Positions 3,769-50,727 of a stretch of 62,748 bases of DNA are shown here, piece after piece. Source of the DNA: Candidatus Omnitrophota bacterium (GTDB taxonomy: Bacteria; Omnitrophota; Gorgyraeia; Zapsychrales; Aceulaceae). How positions within the stretch are numbered: the first letter of the stretch is position 1; each line of letters opens with the position of its first letter. Location of the stretch: contig JAQUUP010000010.1 in NCBI GenBank assembly GCA_028693815.1, positions 1 through 62,748 on the forward strand, given 5' to 3'. A model generated the notes under the pieces. It did no database searches. It saw only the letters and a list, made by a program, of their open reading frames with translations, and was not told the origin of the DNA. The translations under genes and the position numbers were made by a program.

Positions 3769-4701
3769 ATGCGCATTGTTGTGACAGGTGGAGCTGGATT
3801 TATTGGCTCAAATTTTATTCATCATATTCTAAAGAAATATCCAAATTATAAGATTGTTAATATTGACAACCTTACTTATGCAGGGAATTTGCATAATCTT
3901 AAAGATGTTGAAAAGAATAAGAATTATAAATTTGTAAAAGCTGATATTTGTGACCGTAAAAAAATAGATCCATTGATCAAGGGATGTGATTGGATTATCC
4001 ATTTTGCTGCTGAATCCCACGTTGATCGCTCTATTGAAAGTGCAGATATTTTTACCCTAACTAATGTTTTGGGGACTCAGGTGCTCTTGGATGCGGCTGT
4101 GCGCCATCGGGTAAAAAAGTTTATTCATATTAGTACTGATGAAGTTTATGGGAGTCGAAAAAAAGGATTTTTTAAGGAAACAGACATCCTTAATCCCAGT
4201 AGTCCTTATGCGGCAAGCAAGGCAGCATCCGATTTGATGGTTATGGCGTATCGCACAACGTATGGTCTTCCCGTGATCATTACGAGGAGTTCTAATAATT
4301 TTGGCCCGCGTCAATTTCCTGAGAAAATCATTCCTTTATTTATTACGCGCTTGATGGAGAATAAAAAAGTTCCTCTTTATGCTAAAGGCGAAAATGTGCG
4401 TGATTGGATTTTTGTTGAAGACAATTGCCGTGCCGTTGATTTGGTTGCTCATAAAGGAAAAATAGGGGAGATTTATAATATTTGTGCAAAGAATCACTTA
4501 AGTAATATTCAGCTTACAAAAAAGATTTTAAAACGAATGAAGAAGCCAGAATCTATGATCAAGAATGTCAAAGACCGGTTAGGTCATGATTTTCGTTACG
4601 CAATTGATAATAAAAAATTGAGTCAGCTAGGTTTTACGCCAAAATATTCTCTAGAACAGGCCCTTGATTTGACAGTTAAATGGTATGCAGGCAAGTCATG
4701 A
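3769..4701 (+). CDS. rfbB: dTDP-glucose 4,6-dehydratase
   Basis: [50 protein letters not shown] (YxxxK). This is the classic RmlB pattern. Confidence 0.9.
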   Translation: MRIVVTGGAGFIGSNFIHHILKKYPNYKIVNIDNLTYAGNLHNLKDVEKNKNYKFVKADICDRKKIDPLIKGCDWIIHFAAESHVDRSIESADIFTLTNVLGTQVLLDAAVRHRVKKFIHISTDEVYGSRKKGFFKETDILNPSSPYAASKAASDLMVMAYRTTYGLPVIITRSSNNFGPRQFPEKIIPLFITRLMENKKVPLYAKGENVRDWIFVEDNCRAVDLVAHKGKIGEIYNICAKNHLSNIQLTKKILKRMKKPESMIKNVKDRLGHDFRYAIDNKKLSQLGFTPKYSLEQALDLTVKWYAGKS

Positions 4702-5996
4702 AAGAATTAAAACAAAAGATTTTATCAAAAAAAGCTAAAATTGGCGTAATTGGATTAGGTTATGTGGGATTGCCTTTGGCTGTTAGTTTTGCACGCGTTG
4801 GTTTTACTGTTTTAGGATTAGACAAAAACAAAGCCCGTGTTTCTCGTGTGAAGGGTGGAAGAAACTACAACGAAGATGTTTCCGTTAAGGAGATTTCAGG
4901 GCTTGTACGCAAAAAGAAATTTATTGTTTCATCAGATCTTTCGTTGCTTTCAAAGGTGGATGTTATTTTTATATGTGTTCCGACACCGCTGAAGCGTAAA
5001 TATACCCCGGACATTTCTTATATCTTAAGCTCAGTTAAAACTATTCAGTTCTATATTAAGAAGGGAACGCTTGTTATTTTAGAAAGTACAACATATCCAG
5101 GCACAACTGAAGAATTGATTTTACCAAAGCTTGAAAAAGGCGGATTTAAAGTAGGAAAAGATTTTTATTTGGCTTTTTCTCCTGAACGCATTGATCCAGG
5201 CAACAAGAAATATCCCGTTACGAAAATTCCAAAAATAGTTGGCGGCGTTGATAAAGCTTCAGGAATACTCTCTAAGATGCTATATCAGACAATTATTAAA
5301 AGTGTTCATCTTGTTTCTTCTCCAAAGGCAGCGGAAATGGTTAAGCTTTTAGAGAATTCATTTCGGTTAGTCAATATTAGTTGGGTTAATGAAGTTGCTA
5401 TGATGTGTCACAAAATGAATGTGGATATTTGGGAAGTTATTGATGGGGCAAAGACAAAGCCTTTTGGTTTTATGCCGTTTTATCCAAGCCTTGGGGTTGG
5501 CGGTCATTGTATTCCAGACGACCCTCTTTATTTGTATTGGAAAGCAAAACATCACGGTGTTAGCTCAAAGTTTATTAAGCTCTCGGCGGATACGAATGAT
5601 AAGGTTCCCGAATATGTGCTTAATCGCATGAAGGTTTTTTTGAAGGAAAATAAAAGGCCTTCTATGAAATCAAAAATTTTAGTTGTTGGAGTAACGTACA
5701 AAAAAGATGTTAAGGATTTGCGTCGATCGCCAGCAATAAAGTTTTTAGAATTGCTTAAAAAAGAAGAATACAAAGTTAGCTATTCTGATCCTTTAATTCC
5801 TTACTTGGAGATTGGGTCATTACATTTAAAATCAGAATATTTAAGTGAGAAAATATTAAAATTAGCTGATTGTGTGATTATTGCAACTGAACACACGGGT
5901 GTTGATTATAAGAAAATTAAAACGCATGCTAATCTTATTTTTGATTTATGTAATGTTTATAAAGGAAAAAGAAATTCTAAGTTAATGATTTTATAG
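4698..5996 (+). CDS. UDP-N-acetyl-hexosamine 6-dehydrogenase (WbpA/WecC/TviB-type nucleotide-sugar dehydrogenase)
   Basis: [40 protein letters not shown] catalytic Cys, [17 protein letters not shown]. The start is taken at MKELKQK (the track ORF begins at 4680). Confidence 0.8.
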
Positions 5997-6006: not shown

Positions 6007-6951
6007 ATGGCTCAAAGAAAGAAAATATGTTTGATTGCAGGCGGCGCTGGATTTATTGGAAGCCATTTGTGCGACCGCATGATTCAAGACGGATACAAGG
6101 TTATTTGTGTTGATAATTTGATTACGGGAAGCCAAAGAAATATTGCTCATCTTTTAGAAAATAAAGATTTTTCTTTTTTCAAACAAGATATTTCTGAGGA
6201 ATTTGTGATAACTGGACCGATTGATTATGTTTTGCAGTTTGCTTCTCCGGCAAGTCCTATTGATTATTTAAAATATCCAATTGAGACATTAAAAGTTGGG
6301 TCTTTTGGAACATATCATATGCTTGAGCTAGCTAAAAAAAAGAAAGCTAGATTCTTTTTAGCGTCGACTTCTGAAGTTTATGGTGATCCTTTGATTCATC
6401 CTCAGGTTGAAAGTTATTGGGGCAATGTTAACCCCATTGGCATTCGAAGCGTTTATGATGAGGCCAAACGTTTTGCAGAGGCAATGACTATGGCATATCA
6501 GAGAGAGCATAAAATAGACACGCGTATTGTTCGTATTTTTAATACATATGGGCCGCGCATGCAAACGTTAGACGGACGAGTTGTTCCAAATTTTATTTAT
6601 CAGCTTTTGCATAAAAAACCGCTTACGGTTTATGGAACAGGGAAACAAACGCGGTCTTTTTGTTATGTTGATGATTTAGTTGAAGGGATTGTTCGACTTC
6701 TTCGCTCGAGCGTTAAAACACCTGTTAACTTGGGAAATCCTTGTGAATTTACGATGTTAGAGCTGGCTCAGATTATTCAGAAAGTAGCAAAGACAAAATG
6801 TCGCATTATTAGATGTCCTTTGCCAAAAGATGATCCTAAGCAGCGAAAACCAAACATTTCGCTTGCAAAAGAAAAACTAAAGTGGAAGCCAGTCGTTGAT
6901 TTAAAAGAAGGATTGTCTCGAACCATTACATGGTTTGAGAAGCAAATGTAA
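6007..6951 (+). CDS. uxs: UDP-glucuronate decarboxylase (UDP-xylose synthase)
   Basis: [68 protein letters not shown]. Typical UXS/ArnA-C family. Confidence 0.85.
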
Positions 6952-6955
6952 TTAT

Positions 6956-7900
6956 ATGAATGAGAATTCTAAGATTTTAGTTGTTGGACACAATGATGGA
7001 ATTGAAAAATCATTGTTCGAATATTTTTCTAACAATAATTTTTCTGGTGTTTTTTCGTCATCTCAAATAGGGCTGGACACAACAATACAAAGTTCTGTGT
7101 ATCAATTTTTTTCAGAAGTTGAGCCCGAATATGTTTTTTTGGGATCTGTTTGTTCTGGCGGCATTGAGGCAAACAAAAACAATCCTGCGGATTTCTTTTA
7201 TAAGAATTCTGAAAGCCAGAACAATGTGGTGTATGCTGCGCAGAAGTTTGGTGTAAAGAAATTAATGTATTTTGCAAGTTCTTGTGTTTATCCCAAGGAT
7301 TGTCCTCAGCCGATGAAAGAGGAATATTTAACGACAGGGCCGATGGAACCAACAAGCGTTGCGTATTCAACGGCTAAGCTTGCGGGCATAAAATTATGTG
7401 AAAGTTTTCGCGCGCAGTACGGGCTTAACGTTATTGTTGTAATTCCAGCAACTGTTTATGGGCCTGGATGCGATGTTGATTTATCAACGGCTCATGTTAT
7501 TGGTGCTTTGATTCATAAATTTTATGAGGCAAAAGAAAAAGATCAAAAAGAAGTGATTGTTTGGGGAACAGGCAATGCTAGAAGAGAATTTATTTTTGCT
7601 GACGATTTTGTTCGTGCTTGTCTTACTTTAATGAAAAGATATGACAGCGCGCCGATTATTCATATTGGGTCAGGGGAAGATGTTTCGATTCGTGACTTAG
7701 CTTTAATGATTAAGAAAGTTTGTGGGTTTAATGGAGAAGTTGTTTTTGATGCAGCAAAGCCAGAAGGTGTGATGAAAAAACTTTTAGACAATACTAAAAT
7801 TTTAGATTTTGGATGGAGTCCAGAAGTTACGATAGAAGAGGGTATTAAAAAAACTTTTCAGTGGTATGAAAATTTAAGAAAAGCGGAGATGATAACATGA
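6956..7900 (+). CDS. GDP-L-fucose synthase family 3,5-epimerase/4-reductase (Fcl/WcaG-like)
   Basis: KILVVGHNDGIEKSL (compare AGHRGMVGSA in E. coli Fcl), ASSCVYPKDCPQPMKEEYLTTGPMEPTSVAYSTAKLAG, VIPATVYGP. No gmd gene is present in the window. The track ORF starts at 6935; ATG 6956 avoids overlap with uxs. Confidence 0.7.
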   Translation: MNENSKILVVGHNDGIEKSLFEYFSNNNFSGVFSSSQIGLDTTIQSSVYQFFSEVEPEYVFLGSVCSGGIEANKNNPADFFYKNSESQNNVVYAAQKFGVKKLMYFASSCVYPKDCPQPMKEEYLTTGPMEPTSVAYSTAKLAGIKLCESFRAQYGLNVIVVIPATVYGPGCDVDLSTAHVIGALIHKFYEAKEKDQKEVIVWGTGNARREFIFADDFVRACLTLMKRYDSAPIIHIGSGEDVSIRDLALMIKKVCGFNGEVVFDAAKPEGVMKKLLDNTKILDFGWSPEVTIEEGIKKTFQWYENLRKAEMIT

Positions 7901-8829
7901 AAATTTTAGTAACCGGTGGAGCTGGGTATATAGGGTCGATCTTAGTTCCGGAACTTCTTAAAAATGGCCATGAGGTAAGCGTTGTCGATAATTTTATGTA
8001 CAATCAAAATTCATTGCTGGATTGTTGTTTGAATAAGAAATTAAAGATTGTGCGTGGGGATTGTCGAAATAAAACCATTATAGAAAAAGAGCTAAAGCAA
8101 GCGGATGCGATTTTTCCTTTGGCATGCCTCACGGGAGCACCTCTTTGCAAGCAAGATCCTCTGGCGGCACAATCGGTTATTGTTGATGCTGTAAAAATGA
8201 TTTTAGATTTAAGAAGTCCTGACCAAGTAATTATTTATCCGACGACAAATAGTGGCTATGGTATTGGGCAAAAAGATAATTTTTGTACGGAAGAAACTCC
8301 GTTGAATCCTGTTTCGCTTTACGGAAAATTAAAGTGTGAAGCTGAAAAAATGATTTTAGATAAAGGAAACGGCATCACATTAAGGCTTGCAACTGCTTTT
8401 GGCGCAAGCCCAAGAATGCGTTTGGATCTTTTGGTCAATGATTTTACGTATCGTGCTGTATATGATCGTTGCGTTATTCTGTTTGAAGCTCACTTTAAGA
8501 GAAATTATATTCACGTTAGAGATGCTGCTCAGGCTTTTATGCTAGGACTATGTAATTTTGATCAAATGAAGAATGAGCCATATAACGTCGGATTAAGCGA
8601 TGCGAATTTGAGCAAAAAAGAACTTTGCGAGGAGATTAAAAAACATGTCAAAGAATTCTATTTTTATGAATCTCCTATTGGAGAAGATCCAGATAAGCGT
8701 GATTATGTTGTGAGCAATGAGAAAATAGAAAAAAAAGGCTTTAAGCCAAATGTTTCATTGGCAGACGGTATTGAAGAATTAGTTAAGGCGTATCAAATTA
8801 TTAAGCGTAGCCAATACGCAAATATTTAA
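7897..8829 (+). CDS. NAD-dependent epimerase/dehydratase (extended SDR)
   Basis: MKILVTGGAGYIGSILVPELLKNGHEVSVVDNF, SLYGKLKCEAE (YxxxK). ATGA overlap with the upstream gene. Confidence 0.7.
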   Translation: MKILVTGGAGYIGSILVPELLKNGHEVSVVDNFMYNQNSLLDCCLNKKLKIVRGDCRNKTIIEKELKQADAIFPLACLTGAPLCKQDPLAAQSVIVDAVKMILDLRSPDQVIIYPTTNSGYGIGQKDNFCTEETPLNPVSLYGKLKCEAEKMILDKGNGITLRLATAFGASPRMRLDLLVNDFTYRAVYDRCVILFEAHFKRNYIHVRDAAQAFMLGLCNFDQMKNEPYNVGLSDANLSKKELCEEIKKHVKEFYFYESPIGEDPDKRDYVVSNEKIEKKGFKPNVSLADGIEELVKAYQIIKRSQYANI

Positions 8830-8846
8830 AGTAAAGAGAGGATTTT

Positions 8847-9674
8847 ATGAAAAAACAATTAAAGAAAAAAGCCTGGGATATTCGAAAGCATATTTTGAAT
8901 ATGTGTGTTAAGGCCGAGACAGGTCATGTGACCTCGTCGATGTCTTGTGTTGATATCTTAGTTGCGCTGTATCATGGGTGCATCCTGCGTCATGATCCTA
9001 AGAATCCAGATTGGAGTGATCGAGATCGTTTTATTTTAAGCAAGGGACAGGCTAGTCCTGCGCTTTATACTGTGCTTGCGGATTGTGGATATTTTAATAT
9101 GAAGGAGCTAGATAAATTTGCTCAAAAAGATGGCAACTTTGGTGTTCATCTTCAAAACAGCGTTCCAGGCGTTGAAATTACATGTGGATCTTTAGGGCAA
9201 GGTTTTGGGTTTGCTGCGGGAACGGCGTTGGCAGCTAAGAAAAATAGAGATTTATTTTTAACATTTACACTTTTAGGTGACGGTGAGTGCTACGAAGGAT
9301 CTATTTGGGAAACAGCGATGTTTGCATCGCACAATCATTTAAATAATTTAGTAGCGATTATTGATCGTAATTATTTGTGTGTAACTGATTTTACGGAAAA
9401 TATTGTAAGCCTAGAGCCGATGAATGAACGATGGCGATCTTTTGGTTGGGATGTTGAATGTATTGACGGACATTCAATGGATGATTTGCTTGATGTTTTA
9501 GGACGTGTTCGTTCTCGTCGATCAACGCAACCTTTGCTAATTATCGCAGACACGATCAAAGGAGAAGGCGTCGAATCTTTTTGTTATCAACCCGTGTGTC
9601 ATGGTATTGCTCCAAAAGGAGATGATGCTAAAAAAGCATTAGCCGAACTTGAAAGAAGGTGTAGCTATGAATAA
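8847..9674 (+). CDS. Transketolase, N-terminal (ThDP pyrophosphate-binding) subunit
   Basis: GHVTSSMSCVDILVALY, GSLGQGFGFAAGTALA, LLGDGECYEGSIWE. Typical split-transketolase N half. Confidence 0.85.
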   Translation: MKKQLKKKAWDIRKHILNMCVKAETGHVTSSMSCVDILVALYHGCILRHDPKNPDWSDRDRFILSKGQASPALYTVLADCGYFNMKELDKFAQKDGNFGVHLQNSVPGVEITCGSLGQGFGFAAGTALAAKKNRDLFLTFTLLGDGECYEGSIWETAMFASHNHLNNLVAIIDRNYLCVTDFTENIVSLEPMNERWRSFGWDVECIDGHSMDDLLDVLGRVRSRRSTQPLLIIADTIKGEGVESFCYQPVCHGIAPKGDDAKKALAELERRCSYE

Positions 9675-10596
9675 TATTACTCAACGTGATTCATTCTGGA
9701 ATAAAGTTTATGATTTAGCAAAAGAAAATAAAGACATCATTGTTTTATCTGCAGATATGGGTGCGCCATCTCTGGATAAATTTAGAACAGATTTATCTGC
9801 TCAATTTGTCAATGTTGGCATCGCTGAGCAAAATGCTATTTTGATAGCTTCTGGTCTTGCGAAGGAGGGCAAAAGAGTTTTTGTTTATGCGATCGCTCCT
9901 TTTATTACATTTCGATGTCTCGAGCAGATTCGTGTTAATAATTCAATGATGAAAATTCCAATTACAATTGTTGGGGTTGGTGCTGGTTTTGGATATGAAG
10001 ATTCTGGGCCCACGCATCACATGATAGAAGATATTGCGCTTATGCGTTCTATGCCAGATATCGTGATTAATAGCATCTCGGATAGCACGATGGCTGCGGC
10101 TGTTGCTGAGATGTCGACGCGGATGAAAAAAGCAAACTATGTTCGCTTAGATAGACTTGTTTTGCCAACATTGTATGGTCAAGAGGAAGACTTTTCTAAA
10201 GGTGTCGCAATTTTAAGACCGGGTGATATTTATATTGCAGCGACAGGCAGTATGGTGCATGTTGCGCTTGAAGCAGCAGAAAAGCTTAATAAGAGCGGAG
10301 TTAACGTCGGTGTCGTGGACGTATACACTATTCCTATTAATGAAAAGAATTTTGTTGAAGCTATCGACGGATCTAAGAAGCTAATCGCTCTCGAAGAACA
10401 CTTTGTTTCTGGTGGGTTTGGTGGAGCTATCTGTGAAGTTTTGCAGGATAATGCTGTTACAATTCCTGTGAAACGTATTGGGCTTTCGATGGATCAAGGA
10501 TATTGCTATAAATATGGCGGACGTGATGTCATTCGTCAGCATTATGGCATTGACGCTGACAGTGTTGTGCAAAAAATAAATGAATTCTTAAAATAA
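9667..10596 (+). CDS. Transketolase, C-terminal (pyrimidine-binding) subunit
   Basis: FVNVGIAEQNAILIASGLA, GPTHHMIEDIALMRSMP. ATG 9667 overlaps the upstream stop by 8 nt; the track ORF begins at TTG 9649. Confidence 0.85.
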   Translation: MNNITQRDSFWNKVYDLAKENKDIIVLSADMGAPSLDKFRTDLSAQFVNVGIAEQNAILIASGLAKEGKRVFVYAIAPFITFRCLEQIRVNNSMMKIPITIVGVGAGFGYEDSGPTHHMIEDIALMRSMPDIVINSISDSTMAAAVAEMSTRMKKANYVRLDRLVLPTLYGQEEDFSKGVAILRPGDIYIAATGSMVHVALEAAEKLNKSGVNVGVVDVYTIPINEKNFVEAIDGSKKLIALEEHFVSGGFGGAICEVLQDNAVTIPVKRIGLSMDQGYCYKYGGRDVIRQHYGIDADSVVQKINEFLK

Positions 10597-10610
10597 GTAT
10601 AAGAAATTTA

Positions 10611-12089
10611 ATGTCTCTTGATATTGTTTTAGTTAATCCAAGTATTCAAAAAGAAATGTTTGGCAAGCTCGGAGAAAGCCTTGCCGGCATTGAGCCGCCT
10701 TTATGGATTGGTCTTTTGGCCGCGGTTTTGCGGGATCGAGGATTTTCTGTAAAAATTATTGATGCAGAGGCTGAAGGCTTAGGCGCAAAAGAGACGGTTG
10801 ATAAAATTATTGAATATAGCCCTTTAACCATTGGCATTGGGGCTGTTGGGGCTAATCCTTCTGCGAGTTCAACGCCGAAAATGGTTGGTGTTCGTCATGT
10901 CGTGTCTTTACTTAAAGAAAAAAATATAGCATCTGCAACAATTTTGTATGGTATTCATCCTTCTGCACTGCCTGAGCAAACTTTAAAAGAAGAAAGAGCT
11001 GACTTTGTTTGTCGGGGAGAAGCTTTTGAACCGATATCAAAACTTTTAGAAGAGCTTAAATCACAAAAAAAAGAATTGAATCTTGATATTAAAGGTCTTT
11101 GTTATCTGAAGAATGGAAATTTTGTTGATAACGGATGGGCGGATGTGGTGGAAGATTTAGACAGCTTGCCTTTTGTTGCATGGGACCTTCTCCCGATGGA
11201 AAAGTATCGAGCACATAATTGGCATTGCTTTGGTGATGTTAAGCATCGTTCGCCGTATGCGATTATTTATTCAAGCTTAGGTTGCCCGTTTCATTGTCAT
11301 TATTGTAATATTCACGCACTTTATAGTGGCAATCCAGGCATTCGTTTTCGAAGTCCAAAACGAGTTGTTGAGGAAATCGACTATTTGGTTGAAAAATATC
11401 AAGTGCGGCATATGAAAATTTTAGACGAACTTTTTGTTATTGATAAGCAACGTATGTTTGAAATTTGTGATCTTTTAATTGAGCGAAACCACAATATAAA
11501 TTTCTGGGCATATGCAAGAGTCGATACGGTTTCCGAGGAAGTTTTAAAGAAATTAAAAGCCGCAGGAATTAATTGGCTCTGTTATGGAATAGAGGCAGGC
11601 TCTGCGGATGTTCGACAAGGTGTTTCAAAAGGGCGTTTTAGTCAGGATGTGGTTAAAAAAGCCATGAAGATGACCCAAGATGCTGGTATTCATATTATTG
11701 GTAATTTTATGTTTGGACTTCCCGACGATACTCTTGAAACTATGCAAGAAACATTTTCTTTAGCGCAAGAAATTAATTGTGAATATGTTAATTTTTACGC
11801 CACCATGGCGTATCCGGGTTCGCCGCTTTATCAAGATGCGATTAAACAAGGATTGAGTCTGCCGGATGGATGGATGGGATTTTCGCAGTTTAGCCCTCAA
11901 ACGCTTCCTTTGCCAACAAAATATTGTTCGGCCGAAGAAGTTTTGCGTTTTCGTGATGATGCGTTTAACGCTTATTATAGTAATTCTAAATATTTAGATA
12001 TGATTTTGGAAAAGTTTGGACAAGAAACAGTAGATCATATTAAAGAGATGCTTAAACATAAACTCAAGCGGGATATTTTATCAAAATAA
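10611..12089 (+). CDS. B12-binding-domain radical SAM enzyme
   Basis: The N-terminal cobalamin-binding-like domain (IGLLAAVLRDRGFSVKIIDAE) is followed by the SSLGCPFHCHYCNI CxxxCxxC cluster motif. Confidence 0.85.
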   Translation: MSLDIVLVNPSIQKEMFGKLGESLAGIEPPLWIGLLAAVLRDRGFSVKIIDAEAEGLGAKETVDKIIEYSPLTIGIGAVGANPSASSTPKMVGVRHVVSLLKEKNIASATILYGIHPSALPEQTLKEERADFVCRGEAFEPISKLLEELKSQKKELNLDIKGLCYLKNGNFVDNGWADVVEDLDSLPFVAWDLLPMEKYRAHNWHCFGDVKHRSPYAIIYSSLGCPFHCHYCNIHALYSGNPGIRFRSPKRVVEEIDYLVEKYQVRHMKILDELFVIDKQRMFEICDLLIERNHNINFWAYARVDTVSEEVLKKLKAAGINWLCYGIEAGSADVRQGVSKGRFSQDVVKKAMKMTQDAGIHIIGNFMFGLPDDTLETMQETFSLAQEINCEYVNFYATMAYPGSPLYQDAIKQGLSLPDGWMGFSQFSPQTLPLPTKYCSAEEVLRFRDDAFNAYYSNSKYLDMILEKFGQETVDHIKEMLKHKLKRDILSK

Positions 12090-12106
12090 TTTATAGGAGT
12101 TAAGAA

Positions 12107-13105
12107 ATGATTATAAGCCGAACCCCTTTTCGTGTTTCTTTCTTTGGCGGCGGAACAGATTATCCTGCTTGGTTTAATGAAAATAAAGGTGCTTCTTTAG
12201 GTACGACTATTGATAAGTATTGCTATATTACTTGTCGCTATTTGCCTCCTTTTTTTGATCATAAGTCGCGTATTATTTATTCTAAGGTCGAGCAGGTGAA
12301 CAACGTCGACGACATTGTTCATCCGGCTGTGCGTGAAGCGATTAAGTTTTTAAAGATTTCAGATGGTCTTGAAATTCATCATGATGGTGACCTTCCCGCT
12401 CGCACAGGCTTGGGCTCTAGTTCGTCTTTTACCGTTGGGCTTTTAAACGGATTATATGCTTTAAAAGGAAAGATGGTTAGCAAGCAACGTTTAGCTGAGG
12501 AAGCGATTTATGTTGAGCAGGAAATGTGCAAGGAAAATGTTGGATGTCAAGATCAAGCATTAGTGGCAAATGGTGGATTTAATTATGTTGAATTTGGTGG
12601 GTCAACCCATTTAAAGACAACAAAGGTAACGATTTCATCTGAGAAGTTAAAGTTTTTACAAGATCGTCTGATGTTGTTTTTTACAGGATTCTCAAGAACG
12701 GCATCAGAGATTGCGAAACATCAAATTGAAAATATTCCAAAGAAGAAAAAAGATTTAACTGAAATGTATCAAATGGCATCAACAGCTCTCGATATTCTAA
12801 ATGGAAATGATATTTCAGAATTTGGAAAACTTTTAGATGAATCTTGGCAAATAAAAAAACAATTATCTGATAAAATATCAACGCCATATATTGACGAAAT
12901 TTATGAAAAGGCTAAAAAAGCTGGGGCTTCAGGAGGAAAACTTTTAGGTGCCGGTGGGGGAGGATTTGTTTTGTTATTTGCTGATCCAGAAAAACAAAAT
13001 CAGATCAGAGAAGCTCTAAATTCGTTATTGGAAATTCCTTTTAAGTTTGAGATGCAAGGAAGCCAAATTATTTTTTATCAACCAAATACTGGAAAAGTGG
13101 AGTAA
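12107..13105 (+). CDS. GHMP-family sugar-phosphate kinase, HddA-like (D-glycero-D-manno-heptose 7-phosphate kinase type)
   Basis: MIISRTPFRVSFFGGGTDYP start, LPARTGLGSSSSFTVG GHMP motif, GAGGGGFVLLF. Confidence 0.8.
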   Translation: MIISRTPFRVSFFGGGTDYPAWFNENKGASLGTTIDKYCYITCRYLPPFFDHKSRIIYSKVEQVNNVDDIVHPAVREAIKFLKISDGLEIHHDGDLPARTGLGSSSSFTVGLLNGLYALKGKMVSKQRLAEEAIYVEQEMCKENVGCQDQALVANGGFNYVEFGGSTHLKTTKVTISSEKLKFLQDRLMLFFTGFSRTASEIAKHQIENIPKKKKDLTEMYQMASTALDILNGNDISEFGKLLDESWQIKKQLSDKISTPYIDEIYEKAKKAGASGGKLLGAGGGGFVLLFADPEKQNQIREALNSLLEIPFKFEMQGSQIIFYQPNTGKVE

Positions 13106-13110
13106 GCCTT

Positions 13111-13824
13111 TTGTGCGACTTATCAAAAATAGATGTTGTTGTTTTAGCCGGAGGCTTAGGAAAACGTCTTCGTTCTGAGACGGGAAATACGCCAAAAGTT
13201 TTGGCTCAGGTTAATGGTGTTCCTTTTCTTGATATCTTGCTTAAAAATCTTTCAAGCCAAGGCTTTAAAAAAGTTATTTTATGTACCGGTTATCAGTCTC
13301 AAGAGATTGAGTCTTATTATCAGAATAATGCTTTAGGATTGACGATTGAATTCTCTACGGAAGAAGCGCCTCTTGGAACAGGAGGTGCAATTAAGAAAGC
13401 TCGATCATTTGTGCGAAGCGATAAATTCTTTGCTCTCAATGGTGATTGTTTTTGCACCGTTTTATTTAAAGATTTCTTAAAGTTTCATAATGAAAAGAAT
13501 GCTTTTACTTCAATGGTCTTAACAGAAGTTAAGGATAAGAAGGATTTTGGATCTGTTGTTATTGATGATAATAACGCAATTATGAGTTTTCAAGAAAAGA
13601 GTGAAAAAGCATTTTCGCCGTATGTTAGTGTTGGCATTTATTGTTTTGAAAGAGAAGTTTTTGACTCAATGCCAAGCCAAGAAGCTTTTTCGATTGAACA
13701 TGATTTTTTTCCAAATCTCATTAACAAAAGTTTCTTTGGATTTATCACGGATCAAGGTTTCTTAGATATCGGTACCCCGGATCGATACAAACTAGCACAA
13801 GAAAAATTAGTCAATAATGAATAA
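13111..13824 (+). CDS. Sugar-1-phosphate nucleotidyltransferase, HddC-like
   Basis: VVLAGGLGKRLRSETGNTPKVLAQVNG signature, EEAPLGTGGA. TTG start 5 nt after the kinase stop. Confidence 0.8.
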   Translation: MCDLSKIDVVVLAGGLGKRLRSETGNTPKVLAQVNGVPFLDILLKNLSSQGFKKVILCTGYQSQEIESYYQNNALGLTIEFSTEEAPLGTGGAIKKARSFVRSDKFFALNGDCFCTVLFKDFLKFHNEKNAFTSMVLTEVKDKKDFGSVVIDDNNAIMSFQEKSEKAFSPYVSVGIYCFEREVFDSMPSQEAFSIEHDFFPNLINKSFFGFITDQGFLDIGTPDRYKLAQEKLVNNE

Positions 13825-13887
13825 GAAAAGAATGTTTTTACTGGAGATGGCTGATTAAGAATTATTGAAAATTAGCTGATAAAGTGG

Positions 13888-13915
13888 TTGAAAAAAGCCA
13901 TTGTAAAATTATACT
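13888..13915 (+). promoter_or_regulatory. Putative sigma70-type promoter in the 196-nt gap before the aminotransferase
   Basis: TTGAAA (13888-13893), 16-nt spacer, TATACT (13910-13915). Confidence 0.3.
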
Positions 13916-14020
13916 GTTAAGAGGGTCTTCCGAAAAATATCTCTGTCAGTTTATGATTCAGACAATGATTTAATATTTATGGGAAGCAAGCTAGGCGCTT
14001 ATTAAAGGAGTTGTAATAAA

Positions 14021-15160
14021 ATGAGTATTCCATTTGTTGATTTTCGTCCTCAATATGATGAGGTAAAAAATGAAGTTGATAAAGGTGTAAAAAAAGTTTT
14101 CGAGACTGGAAATTTTATTCTTGGGGCTGAAGAAAAAGATTTTGAAGTAAATTTTGCAAAATATTGTGATACGCAATACGGCATTGGCGTTAATTCCGGA
14201 ACAGATGCACTGCATTTGGCTTTACGTGCGCTTGATATCGGGCCGGGAGATGAGGTCATTGTTCCGACATTTACATTTATTGCTTCTGCTTTAGCTGTGT
14301 CGTACACCGGAGCAACGCCTGTTTTTGCAGATATTGAAGAGGGCACGTATAGTCTTGATATAAAAAAGCTGGAGTCTCTTATTACGAAGAAAACAAAAGC
14401 TATTATGCCAGTTCATTTGTACGGTCAGCCTGCAAATTTAGATGAGATTTTAGCTATTGCTAAAAAGCATAATTTAAGAATTGTTGAAGATTGTGCGCAG
14501 GCTCATGGAGCGCTTTACAAGAACAAGAAAGTTGGTTCGTTTGGCGATATAGGTTGTTTTAGTTTTTATCCGACTAAGGGATTAGGAGCTTTTGGCGACG
14601 GAGGATTTATTGCAACGAATAGTGAAGATCTTTATAATAAAGTTTTGATGTTGCGCGATTATGGAAGAAAAGGCCGTTACGAGCACGTTATCAAGGGATA
14701 TAATTCTAGGCTAGACACGGTTCAGGCTGTTGTTTTAGACGCTAAGTTAAAACATTTTGATCGGTGGAATAAAATGCGAAATGAAGCAGCTGTTTATTAT
14801 GGAAAACTTTTAGATCAAATTGAAGGTGTTTGTGCGCCTGTGATTAAAGAAAATCGAACACACACATTTCAAACATTTGCTATTCGAACAAAGAATAGAG
14901 ATATTGTTTGCGAAAGAATGCAGAAAAAAGGGATAGGGGTTTTGGTTCACTATCCGATTCCTGTTCATCTTCAAGAAGCATATCAAGAGCTAGAATATAA
15001 AAAAGGTGATCTTCCGGTATCAGAAAAAATTGCAGGTGAGATTTTGTCTTTGCCGATGTTTCCGCATATTAAAAAAGAGCAAATTGATTTGGTTTGTGCA
15101 GTGCTTAAGGAATCTTTGTTTGATGGGTCAGGCCAACAGTGTGGTTGTTGTAAAGAATAA
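14021..15160 (+). CDS. DegT/DnrJ/EryC1/StrS-family PLP-dependent sugar aminotransferase (WbpE-like)
   Basis: IPFVDFRPQY start, GVNSGTDALHLAL, FSFYPTKGLGAFGDGG (catalytic Lys present), YNSRLDTVQA. AAAGGAG RBS upstream. Confidence 0.85.
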   Translation: MSIPFVDFRPQYDEVKNEVDKGVKKVFETGNFILGAEEKDFEVNFAKYCDTQYGIGVNSGTDALHLALRALDIGPGDEVIVPTFTFIASALAVSYTGATPVFADIEEGTYSLDIKKLESLITKKTKAIMPVHLYGQPANLDEILAIAKKHNLRIVEDCAQAHGALYKNKKVGSFGDIGCFSFYPTKGLGAFGDGGFIATNSEDLYNKVLMLRDYGRKGRYEHVIKGYNSRLDTVQAVVLDAKLKHFDRWNKMRNEAAVYYGKLLDQIEGVCAPVIKENRTHTFQTFAIRTKNRDIVCERMQKKGIGVLVHYPIPVHLQEAYQELEYKKGDLPVSEKIAGEILSLPMFPHIKKEQIDLVCAVLKESLFDGSGQQCGCCKE

Positions 15161-15247
15161 GAAAAAGAAATAAAAAGGTGTGTTTTTTCATTTTGCTAGA
15201 TTATGAACTGTGCAAAATATTTGGATATTGAAAAAGGATAAGAAGAA

Positions 15248-15847
15248 ATGAAAATTGCTTTTTTAGATCGGGATGGTGTTATTAATCAGTTTCCTGGATT
15301 TGGGAAGTATGTTACTAAGGTTAAAGACTTCCATTTTATTCCTGGATCGATTGAGGCTATTGTTGATTTAACGAAAAGAGGATACGCTATTTTTGTTGTA
15401 TCTAATCAGGCTGGCGTTGCAAAGGGAATTTATTCAGAAAGAAAGCTTGAGCAGATTAATGATTATATGATGCGACATGTTAAAAAAGCTGGTGGACGAA
15501 TTAAAAAAGTTTTTTATTGCAGACATCGTTCTGATGCAGGGTGTGATTGTCGAAAACCAAATATAGGCTCTATTGAGCGGGCTCTTAAAATTATCAATAA
15601 AGAGTCAAAGGATGCCAAGTATGCGTATTTTGTTGGTGATGACAAGACGGATATCGAAGCAGGGCATAATGCTGGATGCAAAACAATTTTAGTGTTATCT
15701 GGAAAGAATCAAAGAAAAGATGCAAAGAGTTGGGCGGTTCAACCTGATTTTATTGCACAAACACTTTCAGATGCAAGAAAGATTATCATCAATGAAAATT
15801 CTTCTTATTCATGCCTCGGCAGGAGCCGGACACCAAAAAGCCGCTGA
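15248..15847 (+). CDS. gmhB: D,D-heptose 1,7-bisphosphate phosphatase (HAD, GmhB type)
   Basis: FLDRDGVIN (DxDG), VSNQAGVAKG, CRHRSDAGCDCRKP zinc loop, GDDKTDIEAG. Confidence 0.8.
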   Translation: MKIAFLDRDGVINQFPGFGKYVTKVKDFHFIPGSIEAIVDLTKRGYAIFVVSNQAGVAKGIYSERKLEQINDYMMRHVKKAGGRIKKVFYCRHRSDAGCDCRKPNIGSIERALKIINKESKDAKYAYFVGDDKTDIEAGHNAGCKTILVLSGKNQRKDAKSWAVQPDFIAQTLSDARKIIINENSSYSCLGRSRTPKSR

Positions 15848-19785: not shown

Positions 19786-20826
19786 ATGCATGAATTAAGA
19801 AAAGATCCGATTATTGGCCGCTGGGTTGTTATGGCAAAAGATAGAGCCAGACGTCCAGGTAATTTTATTGTTGCGGATAGAAGTAACGACGATATTTCTT
19901 TGGAAAAAGAATGTTGTTTTTGTGAAGGTCATGAAAAAGAAACCCCGCCTGAAATCTATGCCATTCGAGAAAATAATTCTAAGCCAAATTCTAAGGGTTG
20001 GAAGGTGCGCGTTGTACCGGATAAGAATCCTGTTTTAGAAACAGATGTTGATTTGACACCAAAAGGTCATGGACTTTATGATGTTCTTGAGGGGAGAGGA
20101 GCGCATGAGGTTATTATTGAGACTCCAAGTCATATTGCAAATATGGCTGATTTAGATATTTCGCAGATTGCACTAGTGATTCAGACATATGTAGCGCGCA
20201 TTAATGATCTTGAAAAAGATACTCGTTTGCAATATGTTTTGGCACATAAGAATTATAATTGGTCGAGGGACAATCAAAATATCACGCATTCTTATTCAGA
20301 GATTATTGCAACACCGATTAAACCTATGCGGGTTAAAGAAGAGCTTAATGGCTCAAAAAAGTATTTTGACTATCATGAGCGATGTATTTATTGCGATTTA
20401 ATTAAGCAGGAAATTGCTGCTCAAGAACGCGTTATTTTTGAAAATGACCATTTTCTTGTTGTGGTGCCTTTTGCATCAAGATTTCCGTTTGAGCTTTGGG
20501 TTTTACCTAAAAAACATAATGCACAATTTCCAAAAGGAGTCAGTGGGCTGGAAACTGAATTGGCAAAAGCATTAAAGGAAATTTTGCTTAAGATCAAAAT
20601 TGGTCTTGGTGATCCAGCATATCATTTTGTTGTTCATACAGCTCCATTTCAACGACAAAAAGAAAAACCGATGCAGGAGAATACTATGGAAGAGGATTAT
20701 CATTGGCACATTGAAGTTATGCCAAGATTGACACATACAGCTGGTTTTGAAAAAGGAACAGGTTTTTATATTTGTCCTATTCCGCCAGAAGAAGCGGCAA
20801 GTTATTTAAGAGAGGTTGAGATTTAA
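19786..20826 (+). CDS. Galactose-1-phosphate uridylyltransferase-like protein with a degenerate active site
   Basis: MHELRKDPIIGRWVVMAKDRARRP, CCFCEGHE zinc site, GAHEVIIE. The HxHxQ position reads H168-S-Y-S-E. Confidence 0.8.
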   Translation: MHELRKDPIIGRWVVMAKDRARRPGNFIVADRSNDDISLEKECCFCEGHEKETPPEIYAIRENNSKPNSKGWKVRVVPDKNPVLETDVDLTPKGHGLYDVLEGRGAHEVIIETPSHIANMADLDISQIALVIQTYVARINDLEKDTRLQYVLAHKNYNWSRDNQNITHSYSEIIATPIKPMRVKEELNGSKKYFDYHERCIYCDLIKQEIAAQERVIFENDHFLVVVPFASRFPFELWVLPKKHNAQFPKGVSGLETELAKALKEILLKIKIGLGDPAYHFVVHTAPFQRQKEKPMQENTMEEDYHWHIEVMPRLTHTAGFEKGTGFYICPIPPEEAASYLREVEI

Positions 20827-21840
20827 ATGGGAGAGTTGCGCAAAGATCCAATTTTAGGACGATGGGTTATTGTTAAAACAGAAAAATCTTTGATGCCTGA
20901 AGATTATGAGCAAGAGACGAGAGTTTTTCATCAGCAGGTAACGTGTCCATTTTGTCCTGAGCGAGAGAATCGAACGCCCCCAGAAATTGAAGCTATTCGC
21001 GATGGTGGCGGGGCAAATAGTTCTAATTGGCGTGTTCGCGTTGTGCCTAACAAATTTCCAGCGCTTGATATTTCAGGTGAAATTAATAGACGAGGTATTG
21101 GTGTTTTTGATATGTCGAATGGAATCGGAGCGCATGAAGTTATTGTTGAAACGCGGGATCACAGCAAAGATATCCCTGATCTAACAGATCAAGAAGTTTT
21201 TGATGTTATTAGCAAATATTGTTCTCGTTCTATTGATTTGGCAAAAGACCCGAGATTTAAATATGTTTTAATTTTTAAGAATTATGGCGTTCAAGCTGGC
21301 GCTAGTCTTGAGCATGCCCATAGTCAGGTGATGGCGCTTCCGATGGTTCCAAAATATGTTTTGGAAGCTTTGGAAGGTTCTGATCAGTATTATAGGTTTC
21401 ATGGACGTTGTATTTATTGTGACATTATTCAGCAGGAGATAAAAGATAAGGACCGAATTATTGCAGAAAACGAAGATTTTATTTGTTTCGCTCCATATGC
21501 GTCTCGTTTTTCTTTTGAATCATGGATTATGCCGAAAAAGCATCAGGCTCAGTTTTGCGAAATGAATGATGCTCAGAAATATAGTCTTGGAAAAATTTTA
21601 AAAGAAATGTTGATGCGGAATAAAGCCTGTTTATTCGATCCTTCATATAATTTCTTTATTCACACAGCTCCTGGTAAGTATCACTATCCAGAGGGATATC
21701 ATTGGCATATTGAGTTGATCCCAAAATTGACTAATATGGCTGGTTTTGAATGGGGCACTGGGTTTTATGTGGTTCAAACGGACCCTTTGATTGCGGCAAA
21801 ATTCTTAAGAGAAGCTAAAATAGGGCAATCCACATCGTAG
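20827..21840 (+). CDS. galT: Galactose-1-phosphate uridylyltransferase family (HIT superfamily), canonical active site
   Basis: MGELRKDPILGRWVIV, CPFCPERE, GAHEVIVE, FKNYGVQAGASLEHAHSQ (HxHxQ intact). It starts 1 nt after the paralog's stop. Confidence 0.85.
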   Translation: MGELRKDPILGRWVIVKTEKSLMPEDYEQETRVFHQQVTCPFCPERENRTPPEIEAIRDGGGANSSNWRVRVVPNKFPALDISGEINRRGIGVFDMSNGIGAHEVIVETRDHSKDIPDLTDQEVFDVISKYCSRSIDLAKDPRFKYVLIFKNYGVQAGASLEHAHSQVMALPMVPKYVLEALEGSDQYYRFHGRCIYCDIIQQEIKDKDRIIAENEDFICFAPYASRFSFESWIMPKKHQAQFCEMNDAQKYSLGKILKEMLMRNKACLFDPSYNFFIHTAPGKYHYPEGYHWHIELIPKLTNMAGFEWGTGFYVVQTDPLIAAKFLREAKIGQSTS

Positions 21841-33382: not shown

Positions 33383-34399
33383 GTGATTTCAATTGGTGTT
33401 ATTGGATGTGGTCATTGGGGGCCTAACCATATTCGAACATTTTCTCAGCTTGCAGATTCTGAAGTTGTCATGTGTTCGGATTTGGAGCAAGATCGATTAA
33501 CGGCCATTAAGAACCTTTTTCCTCATATTAAAATAACAAAAGACTATCGAGATATTTTAAGCACTGATGATGTTGACGCGGTTTGCATCGTGACTCCTAC
33601 AGCAAGTCATTTTCAAATTGCCAAAGAATCCTTAGAATCCGGCAAGCATGTTTTGTGTGAGAAGCCGTTAGCTATTTCCGCGAAAGAATGTCAAGAGTTG
33701 GGTCGTTTAGCTCAAGAAAATTCGAAGATTTTAATGGTCGGGCACGTTTTTTTGTTTAATGAAGGCATTGTGCAGTTAAAGAAATATTTGTCGCAGGGCG
33801 AGCTTGGTAATATTTATTATGCTCATTCAGAAAGAACAAACCTTGGCCCATTTCGCTACGATGTTAACGCTCTTTGGGATTTGGCACCTCATGATATTTC
33901 TATTTTTAATTATTTGTTTGATAGTTGTCCTATCAATGTTTCTGCCAGGGGCCAAAAATGTTTAAAAACATCTCTGGAAGATTTGGCATTTGTGACATTG
34001 GAATATCCAAATAACATTTTGGTGAATATCCATGTGAGCTGGCTTGATCCTCGAAAAGTAAGGCAGATTACGATTGTTGGAGATGAAAAAATGATTGTGT
34101 GGGATGATTTGGATAATATGGGTCCGATACGACTTTATGATAAACATGTTGAGCGAACAGAAGTTTTTTATGAAACGTATGGTGAATTTCAGCTTTTATC
34201 AAAAGAGGGAAGTGTGATGATTCCGAAGATTGCGATTAAAGAGCCTTTGAAAAATCAAAATCAATATTTTCTTGATTGCATTAAGAATAATCGGTTGCCT
34301 GATGTTTCAGATGCGAAAAAAGGGGAAGATGTTGTTAGGACACTTTTAGCTATTTCTGAATCAATGAACAATGGCGGATCGCCAGTAAAGATTTCTTAA
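33383..34399 (+). CDS. Gfo/Idh/MocA oxidoreductase, WbpB-like
   Basis: ISIGVIGCGHWGPNHIR, EKPLAIS. GTG start. Followed directly by a WbpD-like acetyltransferase. Confidence 0.75.
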   Translation: MISIGVIGCGHWGPNHIRTFSQLADSEVVMCSDLEQDRLTAIKNLFPHIKITKDYRDILSTDDVDAVCIVTPTASHFQIAKESLESGKHVLCEKPLAISAKECQELGRLAQENSKILMVGHVFLFNEGIVQLKKYLSQGELGNIYYAHSERTNLGPFRYDVNALWDLAPHDISIFNYLFDSCPINVSARGQKCLKTSLEDLAFVTLEYPNNILVNIHVSWLDPRKVRQITIVGDEKMIVWDDLDNMGPIRLYDKHVERTEVFYETYGEFQLLSKEGSVMIPKIAIKEPLKNQNQYFLDCIKNNRLPDVSDAKKGEDVVRTLLAISESMNNGGSPVKIS

Positions 34400-45194: not shown

Positions 45195-45204
45195 AACAGT
45201 CTGC

Positions 45205-45233
45205 ATTATAACATGCTTATGGCTTTGCGGCAA
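45205..45233 (-). promoter_or_regulatory. Putative metF promoter giving a nearly leaderless mRNA
   Basis: On the minus strand: TTGCCG, 17-nt spacer, TATAAT, then 10 nt to ATG 45194 with no RBS. Confidence 0.45.
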
Positions 45234-46199: not shown

Positions 46200-46203
46200 T
46201 ATT

Positions 46204-50511: not shown

Positions 50512-50544
50512 TTTCTTTGTGATTATGTTAACCCAAAAGATCTA

Positions 50545-50554
50545 CCCCCCCCCC
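50545..50554. repeat. C10 homopolymer tract
   Basis: tcta-cccccccccc-tgagg. It stands out in an AT-rich genome, 34 nt after the abiEii stop. Confidence 0.95.
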
Positions 50555-50703
50555 TGAGGTGGTCCGTTTGGCGTTCGTTTCGAAGAGTGAGTAAAACGGA
50601 GAGAGGTTGTTGTCTCGTTTTAGGATTTTGAATTTAGCTTTTTTCTTAAGAGCCTTATTCTAACTTAAAATCTTTAATCTGTTAGTGGGGAGCAGAATAA
50701 CAG

Positions 50704-50727
50704 ACCTTTATTTTAAGAATTAAAAAC
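50704..50727. repeat. Left copy of a ~25-nt imperfect direct repeat flanking AbiE module 2
   Basis: acctttattttaagaattaaaaac versus acctttatcttagaaattaaaaaac at 52677-52701. Confidence 0.5.

Follow-up and report, generated by a model that had tools for sequence, protein, structure and literature searches.

What kind of sugar is built by a gene set that places a split transketolase and a B12-domain radical S-adenosylmethionine (SAM) enzyme among the enzymes of heptose activation? The question is raised by a contig of a Candidatus Omnitrophota bacterium (GenBank assembly GCA_028693815.1, JAQUUP010000010.1), which was analyzed over its whole length of 62,748 nucleotides (62.7 kb; hereafter the window). 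An earlier note on this DNA had described seven consecutive genes at 8847-15847, encoding the two transketolase halves, the radical SAM enzyme, an HddA-like kinase, an HddC-like nucleotidyltransferase, a DegT aminotransferase and a GmhB-type phosphatase; open reading frames (ORFs) and Pfam domains confirm all seven at these coordinates, full length and on the plus strand. The note had proposed that the transketolase supplies a ketose phosphate, to be activated, aminated and perhaps C-methylated in a pathway without the canonical isomerase. We find instead that the conserved unit is a cassette centred on the B12-domain radical SAM enzyme, and that the functional unit reaches upstream to two short-chain dehydrogenase/reductase (SDR) genes (6935-8829) and to a remote gene at 47724-48920. 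We infer that the cassette modifies a GDP-linked sugar destined for a glycan of the cell surface and that the region is one copy of an uncharacterised, widespread set; its product is probably a deoxygenated and probably carbon-branched surface sugar, so far undescribed, derived from an activated seven-carbon sugar.

The radical SAM enzyme belongs to a large and highly conserved family: of 8000 database candidates that were scored, 6835 matched the window protein at E<=1e-20 (a set that may include other B12-domain radical SAM families), the top 120 among the matches listed being 58-89% identical to it, and a scan of one genome per species confirmed at least 593 stretches bearing the gene. Bacterial carriers belong to Omnitrophota, Planctomycetota, Desulfobacterota, Dehalococcoidia, Nitrospirota, Elusimicrobiota, Verrucomicrobiota and Alphaproteobacteria and include two cyanobacteria; archaeal carriers are a Methanoperedenaceae archaeon and a metagenome-assembled genome (MAG) of Nanoarchaeota. 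We searched the ORFs of 85 fetched loci (denoted L) with the window proteins, clustered all ORFs of 80 genome-collection loci and, for the 41 loci with complete flanks, which represent many phyla, calculated how often each neighbour lies no more than 9 kb from the radical SAM gene. That gene was the search anchor and is hence present in every locus by construction; the co-occurrence statistics carry no phylogenetic correction. Its most constant partner is the GHMP kinase gene (Table 1). The arrangement is not the product of chance, as dozens of lineages unrelated to one another share it. Co-conservation of the genes described in the earlier note is found for the cassette across phyla, but not for all seven members, since the adjacent DegT and GmhB genes keep their place beside it only in the close relatives L007 and L041. 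Family assignments and co-conservation can be read directly from the sequences, as can the two distinctions developed below, between His-type and Lys-type DegT-fold proteins and between two mutually exclusive types of thiamine diphosphate (ThDP) enzyme.

Table 1. Features of the window and the share of 41 loci in which each lies at most 9 kb from the radical SAM gene
Feature	Coordinates	Strand	Match or position	Share of 41 loci
GDP-L-fucose-synthase-like (fcl-like) SDR	6935-7900	+	NCBIfam GDP-fucose synthase 330 bits, cut-off 500	59%
Cj1427-like SDR (SDR4), predicted C4-dehydrogenase	7897-8829	+	PDB 6VO6/6VO8, 408 bits	76%
Split transketolase-like, N-terminal (ThDP/PP-domain) half	8847-9674	+	Pfam Transketolase_N 134 bits	
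Split transketolase-like, C-terminal half	9649-10596	+	Pfam Transket_pyr + Transketolase_C	
Two-subunit ThDP enzyme				85%
B12-domain radical SAM, class B architecture	10611-12089	+	B12-binding 59.8 bits, Radical_SAM 71.5 bits	
HddA-like GHMP sugar kinase	12107-13105	+	Pfam GHMP kinase N + C domains	88%
HddC-like sugar-1-phosphate (probably guanylyl) transferase	13111-13824	+	Pfam NTP_transferase	68%
Lys-type DegT aminotransferase	14021-15160	+	Pfam DegT 403 bits	10%
GmhB-type HAD-IIIA, predicted heptose-1,7-bisphosphate 7-phosphatase	15248-15847	+	Pfam HAD-IIIA, GmhB-like	12%
His-for-Lys DegT-fold protein, predicted ColD/E1 (RfbH)-type sugar 3-dehydratase	47724-48920	+	Best NCBIfam RfbH	85%
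GmhA				20%
LptD	105-2408	+	Upstream	

The activation genes bear on the origin of the sugar. The kinase scores 135 bits against the NCBIfam HddA model (NF049969; cut-off 600), below equivalog level, and about 112-121 bits against the heptose kinases of the PDB (3k85, 4usk and 4n3o); its orthologs across the loci score 400-500 bits. The nucleotidyltransferase matches the NCBIfam mannose-1-phosphate guanylyltransferase model with 173 bits, HddC with 157 bits (cut-off 300), and PDB entries 5xhw/6jq8, termed "6-deoxy-D-mannoheptose pathway protein", with 138 bits. The phosphatase reaches 168 bits with PRK08942, the beta-anomer type (cut-off 178), and 115 bits with the alpha type (cut-off 250). As the earlier note had observed, the window holds no GmhA/SIS isomerase: phmmer searches with GmhA of E. 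coli, run at E up to 10, and others with the SIS protein of Solidesulfovibrio magneticus matched no six-frame ORF of at least 60 residues. This is probably a matter of gene location in the present lineage, and as a property of the pathway the lack of an isomerase could not be upheld, because GmhA sits inside orthologous cassettes in 12 of the 80 loci, ten of them clear (100-150 bits with E. coli GmhA as query) and two weaker. Clear cases occur in Dehalococcoidia/Chloroflexota (L024, L025, L026, L040), in both cyanobacteria (L057, L060) and in the Methanoperedenaceae archaeon (L018), and a GmhB-like gene lies inside the cassette in nine of the 80. In scans of loci that also bear GmhA and GmhB, the cassette kinase is the sole HddA-like gene. 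Since related cassettes hold GmhA and GmhB and the scans found no other HddA-like kinase there, we conclude that the cassette starts from sedoheptulose-7-phosphate by way of GmhA, the kinase, GmhB and the transferase. The logic of heptose activation recognized in the earlier note is supported by the GmhA and GmhB genes of related loci, and we consider a GDP-heptose origin of the pathway highly probable. The GmhB-type phosphatase of the window, whose gene is syntenic with monogalactosyldiacylglycerol (MGDG) synthase in L007, may supply the step that the pathway needs as an enzyme shared with heptose synthesis for the lipopolysaccharide core.

The gene directly upstream of the transketolase halves encodes an SDR (SDR4) that aligns without gaps over 308 residues, at about 59% identity, with a structure (PDB 6VO6) which we take to be Cj1427 of Campylobacter jejuni. 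Enzymes of the Cj1427 type follow a ping-pong mechanism in which tightly bound NADH is reoxidised by 2-oxoglutarate, yielding L-2-hydroxyglutarate. The linkage of lhgO (L-2-hydroxyglutarate oxidase) to the cassette in five loci (S. magneticus plasmid pDMC1, L036, L053, L056 and L060) accords with such 2-oxoglutarate-dependent chemistry and lends it indirect support. Cj1427 forms GDP-4-keto-heptose with 2-oxoglutarate (PMC10680097), and from its close resemblance to this structure the SDR is, with considerable assurance, predicted to be the C4-dehydrogenase of the pathway. The neighbouring fcl-like SDR scores 249 bits with GDP-fucose synthases of the PDB and about 211-215 bits with further chains labelled "GDP-L-fucose synthase", which we take to be the C. 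jejuni heptose C4-reductases; it is probably a reductase of the C4 or branch ketone and possibly an epimerase too.

A DegT-fold protein is a regular member of the cassette, but it is not the aminotransferase of the earlier note. Replacement of the catalytic lysine of this fold by histidine is the hallmark of the 3-dehydratases ColD and E1 (RfbH). When DegT-fold proteins from all loci were aligned and compared at the catalytic position, the cassette member carried this histidine (SFYxAH) in about 60 orthologs. Its counterpart in the window is the protein encoded at 47724-48920, 34 kb from the rest of the cassette, which by sequence is the ortholog of the cassette gene product (479 bits to that of L029, 561 bits to that of S. 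magneticus) and in which His184, within YSLYLAH, replaces the lysine and places it in the His-for-Lys class; its top NCBIfam match is RfbH (286 bits, cut-off 423). Residues 210-229 hold an insert of four cysteines, CxCxxCx8C (C215, C217, C220, C229), found in about 23 of the 60 orthologs and lacking in the rest, which in its sequence recalls the [2Fe-2S] site of E1 (RfbH); no E3-type reductase was seen near the gene. In C. jejuni HS:5, a C3-dehydratase dependent on pyridoxal phosphate (PLP) and glutamate acts on GDP-4-keto-heptose (PMC10680097). Judged by its residues and orthology, the remote product is probably the 3-dehydratase of the pathway. The dTDP-L-rhamnose genes of the window are split in like manner, RmlB at 3769-4701 and RmlA, RmlC and RmlD at 45330-47611, all four above their NCBIfam cut-offs, so that the two regions of the contig complement each other.

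The DegT protein encoded at 14021, by contrast, keeps its catalytic lysine (SFYPTK) and falls outside the ColD/E1 class. Its orthologs (516-546 bits) were found only in L007 and L041, the latter carrying Lys-type and His-type proteins both. The gene follows the nucleotidyltransferase gene across a gap of 196 nt, in which a promoter/terminator scan detected no terminator and one promoter-like site (13888-13915), the number of matches not exceeding that in shuffled sequence. It may transaminate a ketone in this lineage or belong elsewhere, and its membership in the pathway is uncertain. Because the conserved DegT-fold partner is a dehydratase of the His type, the conserved pathway deoxygenates its sugar and does not aminate it; amination by the Lys-type protein is possible in this lineage.

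The role of the transketolase-like protein is the point at which the evidence departs furthest from the earlier note. The halves, whose genes overlap by 26 nt, score 256 and 167 bits with the transketolase model NF004559 (cut-off 488), and the C-terminal half has its best PDB match, at 139 bits, in the split transketolase of Carboxydothermus. By alignment to TktA of E. coli, whose numbering is used here, the GDG...N motif for metal and ThDP is conserved in the window protein, as are the catalytic residues H26, H261, H473 and E411 and also H100, R358 and R520, with Gln at H66. Of the ligands for phosphate and acceptor (R358, S385, H461, D469, R520) the set is incomplete: all 33 cassette orthologs have Gly for H461 and Pro for S385 (the N-terminal half has orthologs in 33 of the 80 loci), so that two ligands of the substrate phosphate in true transketolases are missing. 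In about half of these orthologs position 26 is Arg and position 100 is Ile. An apparent D469 to Ser change was dropped as evidence, as it may reflect an alignment shift of one residue; its withdrawal belongs with the points against our reading that are gathered below.

Comparison among loci is more telling. Twenty of the 41 loci encode a transketolase-like enzyme and 15 a two-subunit enzyme resembling E1 alpha/beta, an identity supported by Pfam and PGAP labels; none encodes both and six encode neither (Fisher p ~1e-6 for exclusivity, not phylogenetically corrected). The exchange is seen even within one genomic frame: four Omnitrophota loci (L029, L030, L035, L050) share with the window, L006 and L007 the order LptD-UDP-glucose dehydrogenase (UGDH)-UGDH-SDR2, and have the E1 type where the latter three have the transketolase type. 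E1-type cassettes with GmhA (S. magneticus, L057) further indicate that sedoheptulose-7-phosphate comes there from central metabolism. Because an E1 enzyme cannot make sedoheptulose-7-phosphate and E1 cassettes keep GmhA, the role shared by the two types is unlikely to be precursor supply. The ThDP enzymes are encoded together with predicted makers of keto nucleotide sugars and a ketoreductase, the genomic company of the keto-sugar-branching class: SDR4 is present in 30 of 35 ThDP-positive loci and in one of six ThDP-negative loci (p = 0.002, with no correction for kinship), and the ThDP-positive loci bear the 3-dehydratase in 32 and the fcl-like SDR in 21 of 35. One locus, L009, reads MTHFR (minus strand), dehydratase-like SDR, fcl-like SDR, WecG glycosyltransferase, transketolase N-half, transketolase C-half, radical SAM enzyme and GT10 fucosyltransferase-like protein; ortholog scans found in it no kinase, nucleotidyltransferase, GmhA or Cj1427-like (SDR4) gene.

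These observations decide largely against the earlier proposal, in which the embedded transketolase makes a ketose phosphate (sedoheptulose-7-phosphate or an octulose phosphate) that is then activated, aminated by the adjacent DegT protein and C-methylated by the radical SAM enzyme. That proposal can draw on the retained catalytic histidines and the two phosphate-binding arginines, on the nearest solved relative being a genuine split transketolase, on a Lys-type aminotransferase gene 196 nt downstream that is syntenic in L007 and L041, and on a contig without GmhA. Yet the enzyme is replaced in the same frame by a mutually exclusive type that cannot make the precursor, it tracks SDR4, it occurs with the radical SAM enzyme in L009 where the scans found no genes of heptose activation, it has lost H461 and S385 in all orthologs, and the conserved DegT-fold partner is a dehydratase. 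We therefore regard precursor supply as unlikely, and the whole of that scheme as improbable. Action of the ThDP enzyme on a nucleotide sugar seems to us the likelier role, and one we favour with fair confidence. Enzymes of the YerE type, of the alpha-KADH2 type (E1 alpha/beta) and of the split-transketolase type have an established or proposed role in attaching C2 branches to 4-keto or 3-deoxy-4-keto nucleotide sugars, the branch ketone being afterwards reduced, methylated or transaminated (PMC12247030; PMC4753412); the split-transketolase class is only proposed, unproven in vitro and reported from Streptomycetes only (PMC12247030). By analogy with these systems C4 may be the carbon that is branched, a tentative assignment that we would not quite call probable.

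Less can be said of the radical SAM enzyme, even though it is the constant of the cassette. Its CxxxCxxC motif (C225/C229/C232) is invariant, and significant matches to PF02310 (59.8 bits, cut-off 32.1) and PF04055 (71.5 bits) give it the domain architecture of class B. The best NCBIfam models, HpnJ (174 bits, cut-off 578) and BchE (160 bits, cut-off 481), fall short of equivalog level; neither HpnJ nor BchE is known to be a methylase, both being ring-forming enzymes. An AlphaFold model (predicted local distance difference test score 88, predicted template modelling (TM) score 0.90) agrees with the sequence profile in placing AprD4 first among PDB structures: 84 bits by profile, and a fold TM-score of 0.72-0.79 over the whole protein at about 20% identity. 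The next fold matches are the cobalamin-dependent TsrM, MgmA, OxsB, CysS and TokK. AprD4 itself dehydrates a 1,2-diol of a sugar by radical SAM chemistry; the window protein lies outside the AprD4 family as defined by NF033070 (87.5 bits, cut-off 500). Like the cassette enzyme, AprD4, which with the NADPH reductase AprD3 carries out the C3' deoxygenation of apramycin, has a carbohydrate substrate and the full two-domain fold, and an SDR reductase gene likewise lies near the radical SAM gene; unlike AprD4, the cassette enzyme matches the Pfam B12-binding domain significantly, and it would act on a nucleotide sugar in place of an aminoglycoside.

Some loci bear the gene without a ThDP enzyme. 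The plasmids of Azospirillum lipoferum 4B (L089) and A. ramasamyi (L092) carry a minimal set of radical SAM enzyme, kinase, NUDIX protein and a hypothetical protein of about 1127 residues, with an fcl-like gene annotated in L089 and not in L092; L003 holds Gmd-like, fcl-like and radical SAM genes. As the radical SAM gene occurs in these settings without the ThDP enzyme, its reaction does not depend on the branch, and from the gene content the enzyme probably targets a feature common to GDP-manno-type sugars. Methylation is a possible reaction, proposed with less than moderate confidence; a radical dehydration like that of AprD4 is a rather unlikely second candidate, and some other rearrangement may be catalysed instead. 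As separate observations, the Azospirillum minimal set adjoins genes like those for the C. jejuni O-methyl-phosphoramidate (a PEP-utilising kinase, a cytidylyltransferase, a GATase-like hydrolase and an APS-kinase-like protein), and about a quarter of the cassettes carry one or two extra, more distant B12-domain radical SAM paralogs (L018, L028, L042 and others), L042 having three B12-domain radical SAM genes in tandem. A methyl-supplying role of the methylenetetrahydrofolate reductase (MTHFR) was considered and rejected. Its gene borders the glycan locus on the opposite strand in the window (44316-45233, minus) and in L003 (6213-7103) and L009 (4032-4904), is absent from other loci, and is probably a matter of lineage synteny.

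The affinity to AprD4 allows a second scheme, namely that the radical SAM enzyme converts the C6-C7 diol of GDP-heptose to a carbonyl to which the ThDP enzyme adds a C2 unit, yielding a linear deoxy-nonose, with C4 oxidation and C3 deoxygenation as separate events. Transketolase and DXS naturally use aldehydes as acceptors, AprD4 is the top match of the radical SAM enzyme by both sequence and fold, in 18 loci the gene for the transketolase C-half immediately precedes that of the radical SAM enzyme, and in Azospirillum the fcl-like SDR beside the radical SAM enzyme resembles the AprD4/AprD3 pair of dehydratase and reductase. All of this speaks for such chain extension; but the protein reaches only 87 bits with the AprD4 family model against its cut-off of 500, it is also found with genes of the 6-deoxyhexose type (L003, L009), whose sugars have no C6-C7 diol, and the tracking of the C4-dehydrogenase by the ThDP enzyme would go unexplained. 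We judge this extension at the chain end a poor prospect, no better than that of precursor supply.

Branching of a nucleotide sugar is preferred, and the route that we propose runs as follows. Sedoheptulose-7-phosphate would be isomerised by a GmhA encoded elsewhere in the genome, and the kinase, the GmhB-type phosphatase and the transferase would make GDP-heptose of it. The Cj1427-like SDR would then oxidise C4, probably with 2-oxoglutarate as oxidant, and the remote His-type DegT-fold enzyme would remove the C3 hydroxyl to give GDP-3-deoxy-4-keto-heptose. To this keto sugar the split transketolase-like enzyme would add a C2 unit, hydroxyacetyl here and acetyl where the E1 type is present, after which the fcl-like SDR would reduce the remaining ketone. 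The radical SAM enzyme would make one further modification of the GDP-sugar, for which C-methylation and AprD4-like radical dehydration are candidates. For the composite route, up to and including action of the ThDP enzyme on a GDP-keto-sugar, we see the chances as evenly balanced; its substrates, step order and product we infer from the sequences.

Several points weigh against it. The kinase, the transferase and the phosphatase each remain under their NCBIfam equivalog cut-offs, as indeed do all seven genes at 8847-15847. The 3-dehydratase gene lies 34 kb away beside rmlACD and could serve another pathway. Retention of H26, H100, H261, H473, R358 and R520 in the transketolase-like enzyme is compatible with a sugar-phosphate substrate. 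The radical SAM gene occurs also without any ThDP enzyme, on the Azospirillum plasmids, in L003 and in six of the 41 loci, and the identity of PDB 6VO6 with Cj1427, for which a literature search gave no confirmation, is taken as given. Every step of the route is predicted from genes, as is the sugar itself.

Comparison with characterised systems shows where the cassette conforms and where it departs. It shares with the C. jejuni pathway for capsular heptoses, which comprises HddA/GmhB/HddC, Cj1427, the HS:5 C3-dehydratase and C4-reductases of the Cj1428 type, the activation by GHMP kinase, HAD phosphatase and nucleotidyltransferase, the SDR of about 59% identity discussed above, the PLP-fold 3-dehydratase and the fcl-like reductase. 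C. jejuni, in contrast, has no ThDP or radical SAM enzyme in its pathway, while the cassette is without a cupin C3/C5-epimerase, the contig is without GmhA, and the kinase is related to the solved heptose kinases only at about 112-121 bits. It is very improbable that the locus makes a plain modified heptose of the C. jejuni type with the transketolase halves and the radical SAM gene as unrelated passengers, for although the Cj1427-like, fcl-like, HddA-like and HddC-like genes and the 3-dehydratase would suffice alone for a 3-deoxy-heptose, the ThDP pair is present in 85% and the GHMP kinase in 88% of the 41 anchored loci within 9 kb, the C-half gene directly precedes the radical SAM gene in 18 loci, and the genes at 6935-13824 run along one strand as ORFs that overlap or have only short gaps between them.

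The synthesis of yersiniose A (from CDP-glucose by a 4,6-dehydratase, the E1/E3 3-dehydrase, YerE and YerF) resembles the branching route in its 3-deoxy-4-keto nucleotide sugar, ThDP-dependent C2 addition and ketone reduction, and employs a His-type dehydratase like that of the cassette, akin to E1/RfbH. Paulomycose, eurekanate and kibdelomycin depend on alpha-KADH2 (E1 alpha/beta), with which the E1 alpha/beta variant of the cassette agrees in architecture. This group differs in that the cassette probably uses GDP in place of CDP or dTDP and a heptose in place of a 6-deoxyhexose, that its ThDP enzyme falls outside the YerE (decarboxylase) class, that it has an additional class B radical SAM enzyme, and that its setting is the envelope glycan of uncultured phyla and not actinomycete antibiotics. 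The split transketolases of miharamycin and amipurimycin, with a proposed hydroxyacetyl branch, are likewise two-gene enzymes in sugar-tailoring clusters beside a keto-sugar oxidoreductase (PMC12247030); they are unproven in vitro and, with 13 sequences, are reported from Streptomycetes only (PMC12247030). In the lincosamide GDP-octose route (LmbR, LmbN, LmbP, LmbK, LmbO) a higher-carbon sugar phosphate is likewise activated by kinase, phosphatase and guanylyltransferase and then tailored as a nucleotide sugar. Carbon transfer in the cassette differs in being ThDP-based and most likely later than activation, and the GmhA of related cassettes points to plain sedoheptulose-7-phosphate; a Pfam scan of about 60 ORFs of the window, which omitted some ten of 100-220 residues, detected no transaldolase domain such as would mark an LmbR-like enzyme. 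Full-text literature searches yielded no characterised pathway with this enzyme set, in agreement with the earlier note, which knew of none. Each enzyme family is known; their combination on GDP-heptose, with a class B radical SAM enzyme and interchangeable transketolase and E1 modules, matches no paper found.

A more far-reaching possibility is that the ThDP and radical SAM enzymes form a portable two-enzyme module that builds a new carbon skeleton on GDP-4-keto sugars, with C2 addition followed by a radical C-C or C-H step, whether ring closure of the branch with the side chain to a carbocycle-fused, bradyrhizose-like sugar or further chain growth; we offer it as speculation, slightly less probable even than the first two alternatives above. 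A genetic link to bradyrhizose itself was sought and discarded: the sole genetics paper calls the genes unknown, and the 11-gene cluster that it mentions encodes a dTDP-glucose 4,6-dehydratase but neither a transketolase nor a radical SAM enzyme.

The wider window is rich in other glycan functions. The presence of LptD implies that the organism is diderm. Its gene is followed, upstream of the seven genes, by those for UDP-glucose dehydrogenase, RmlB, a second nucleotide-sugar dehydrogenase (4680-5996) and three SDRs; downstream lie genes for MGDG synthase, PriA, Fmt and housekeeping functions. Between fmt and gap, at 19786-21840, are two tandem divergent genes resembling galactose-1-phosphate uridylyltransferase (HIT/DUF4921). 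A GFO/IDH/MocA oxidoreductase, a hexapeptide acetyltransferase and a GT2 protein are encoded together at 33383-35678, and with the dehydrogenase at 4680-5996 and the Lys-type DegT protein they could form a WbpA/B/E/D-like route to a diacetamido-uronic acid or a GnnA/B-like route. A second glycan region from 45 kb comprises RmlA, RmlC, RmlD, the His-type DegT-fold gene, AbiEii pairs and a nonulosonic acid cluster. The pairs, situated between the last two (49023-52527), are two successive AbiEii-type genes (type IV toxin-antitoxin nucleotidyltransferase), each preceded by a small ORF without Pfam match. The cluster (53753-62067) is complete and of the legionaminic acid type, encoding a LegB-like 4,6-dehydratase, LegC-like aminotransferase, PglD-like acetyltransferase, NeuB, hydrolysing 2-epimerase, GFO/IDH/MocA oxidoreductase, CMP-transferase, SDR and a CBS-domain nucleotidyltransferase (PtmE-like). 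The G+C content of the contig is about 36%, its GC skew is strongly positive, and every gene of the first 43 kb is on the plus strand. MAGs labelled Omnitrophota or Planctomycetales are its nearest relatives; among sequencing runs, only DNA runs of a landfill metagenome contain its sequence, and no RNA run does.

Cultured carriers offer an experimental entry. S. magneticus RS-1 has a full cassette of the E1 type on plasmid pDMC1 (58.7 kb; L090, NC_012797.1 24342-39663), in a region that also holds a NUDIX gene, a PMT-like glycosyltransferase gene, lhgO and an SIS/GmhA gene; Floridaenema fluviatile and the Azospirillum plasmids are further candidates. For annotation, the labels "transketolase" and "aminotransferase" in such clusters are probably misleading. 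If the proposed route is correct, several hundred species-level genomes in at least 12 phyla, mostly uncultured, would make an undescribed heptose-derived sugar of surface glycans; nucleotide sugars would be the first substrate class for a large, conserved family of B12-domain radical SAM enzymes; and ThDP-dependent sugar branching by split transketolase-like and E1-like enzymes would extend from actinomycete antibiotics to primary envelope biosynthesis. Should the portable module prove real, Omnitrophota, Planctomycetota, Dehalococcoidia, cyanobacteria and some archaea would commonly carry a new class of higher-carbon sugars in their envelopes.

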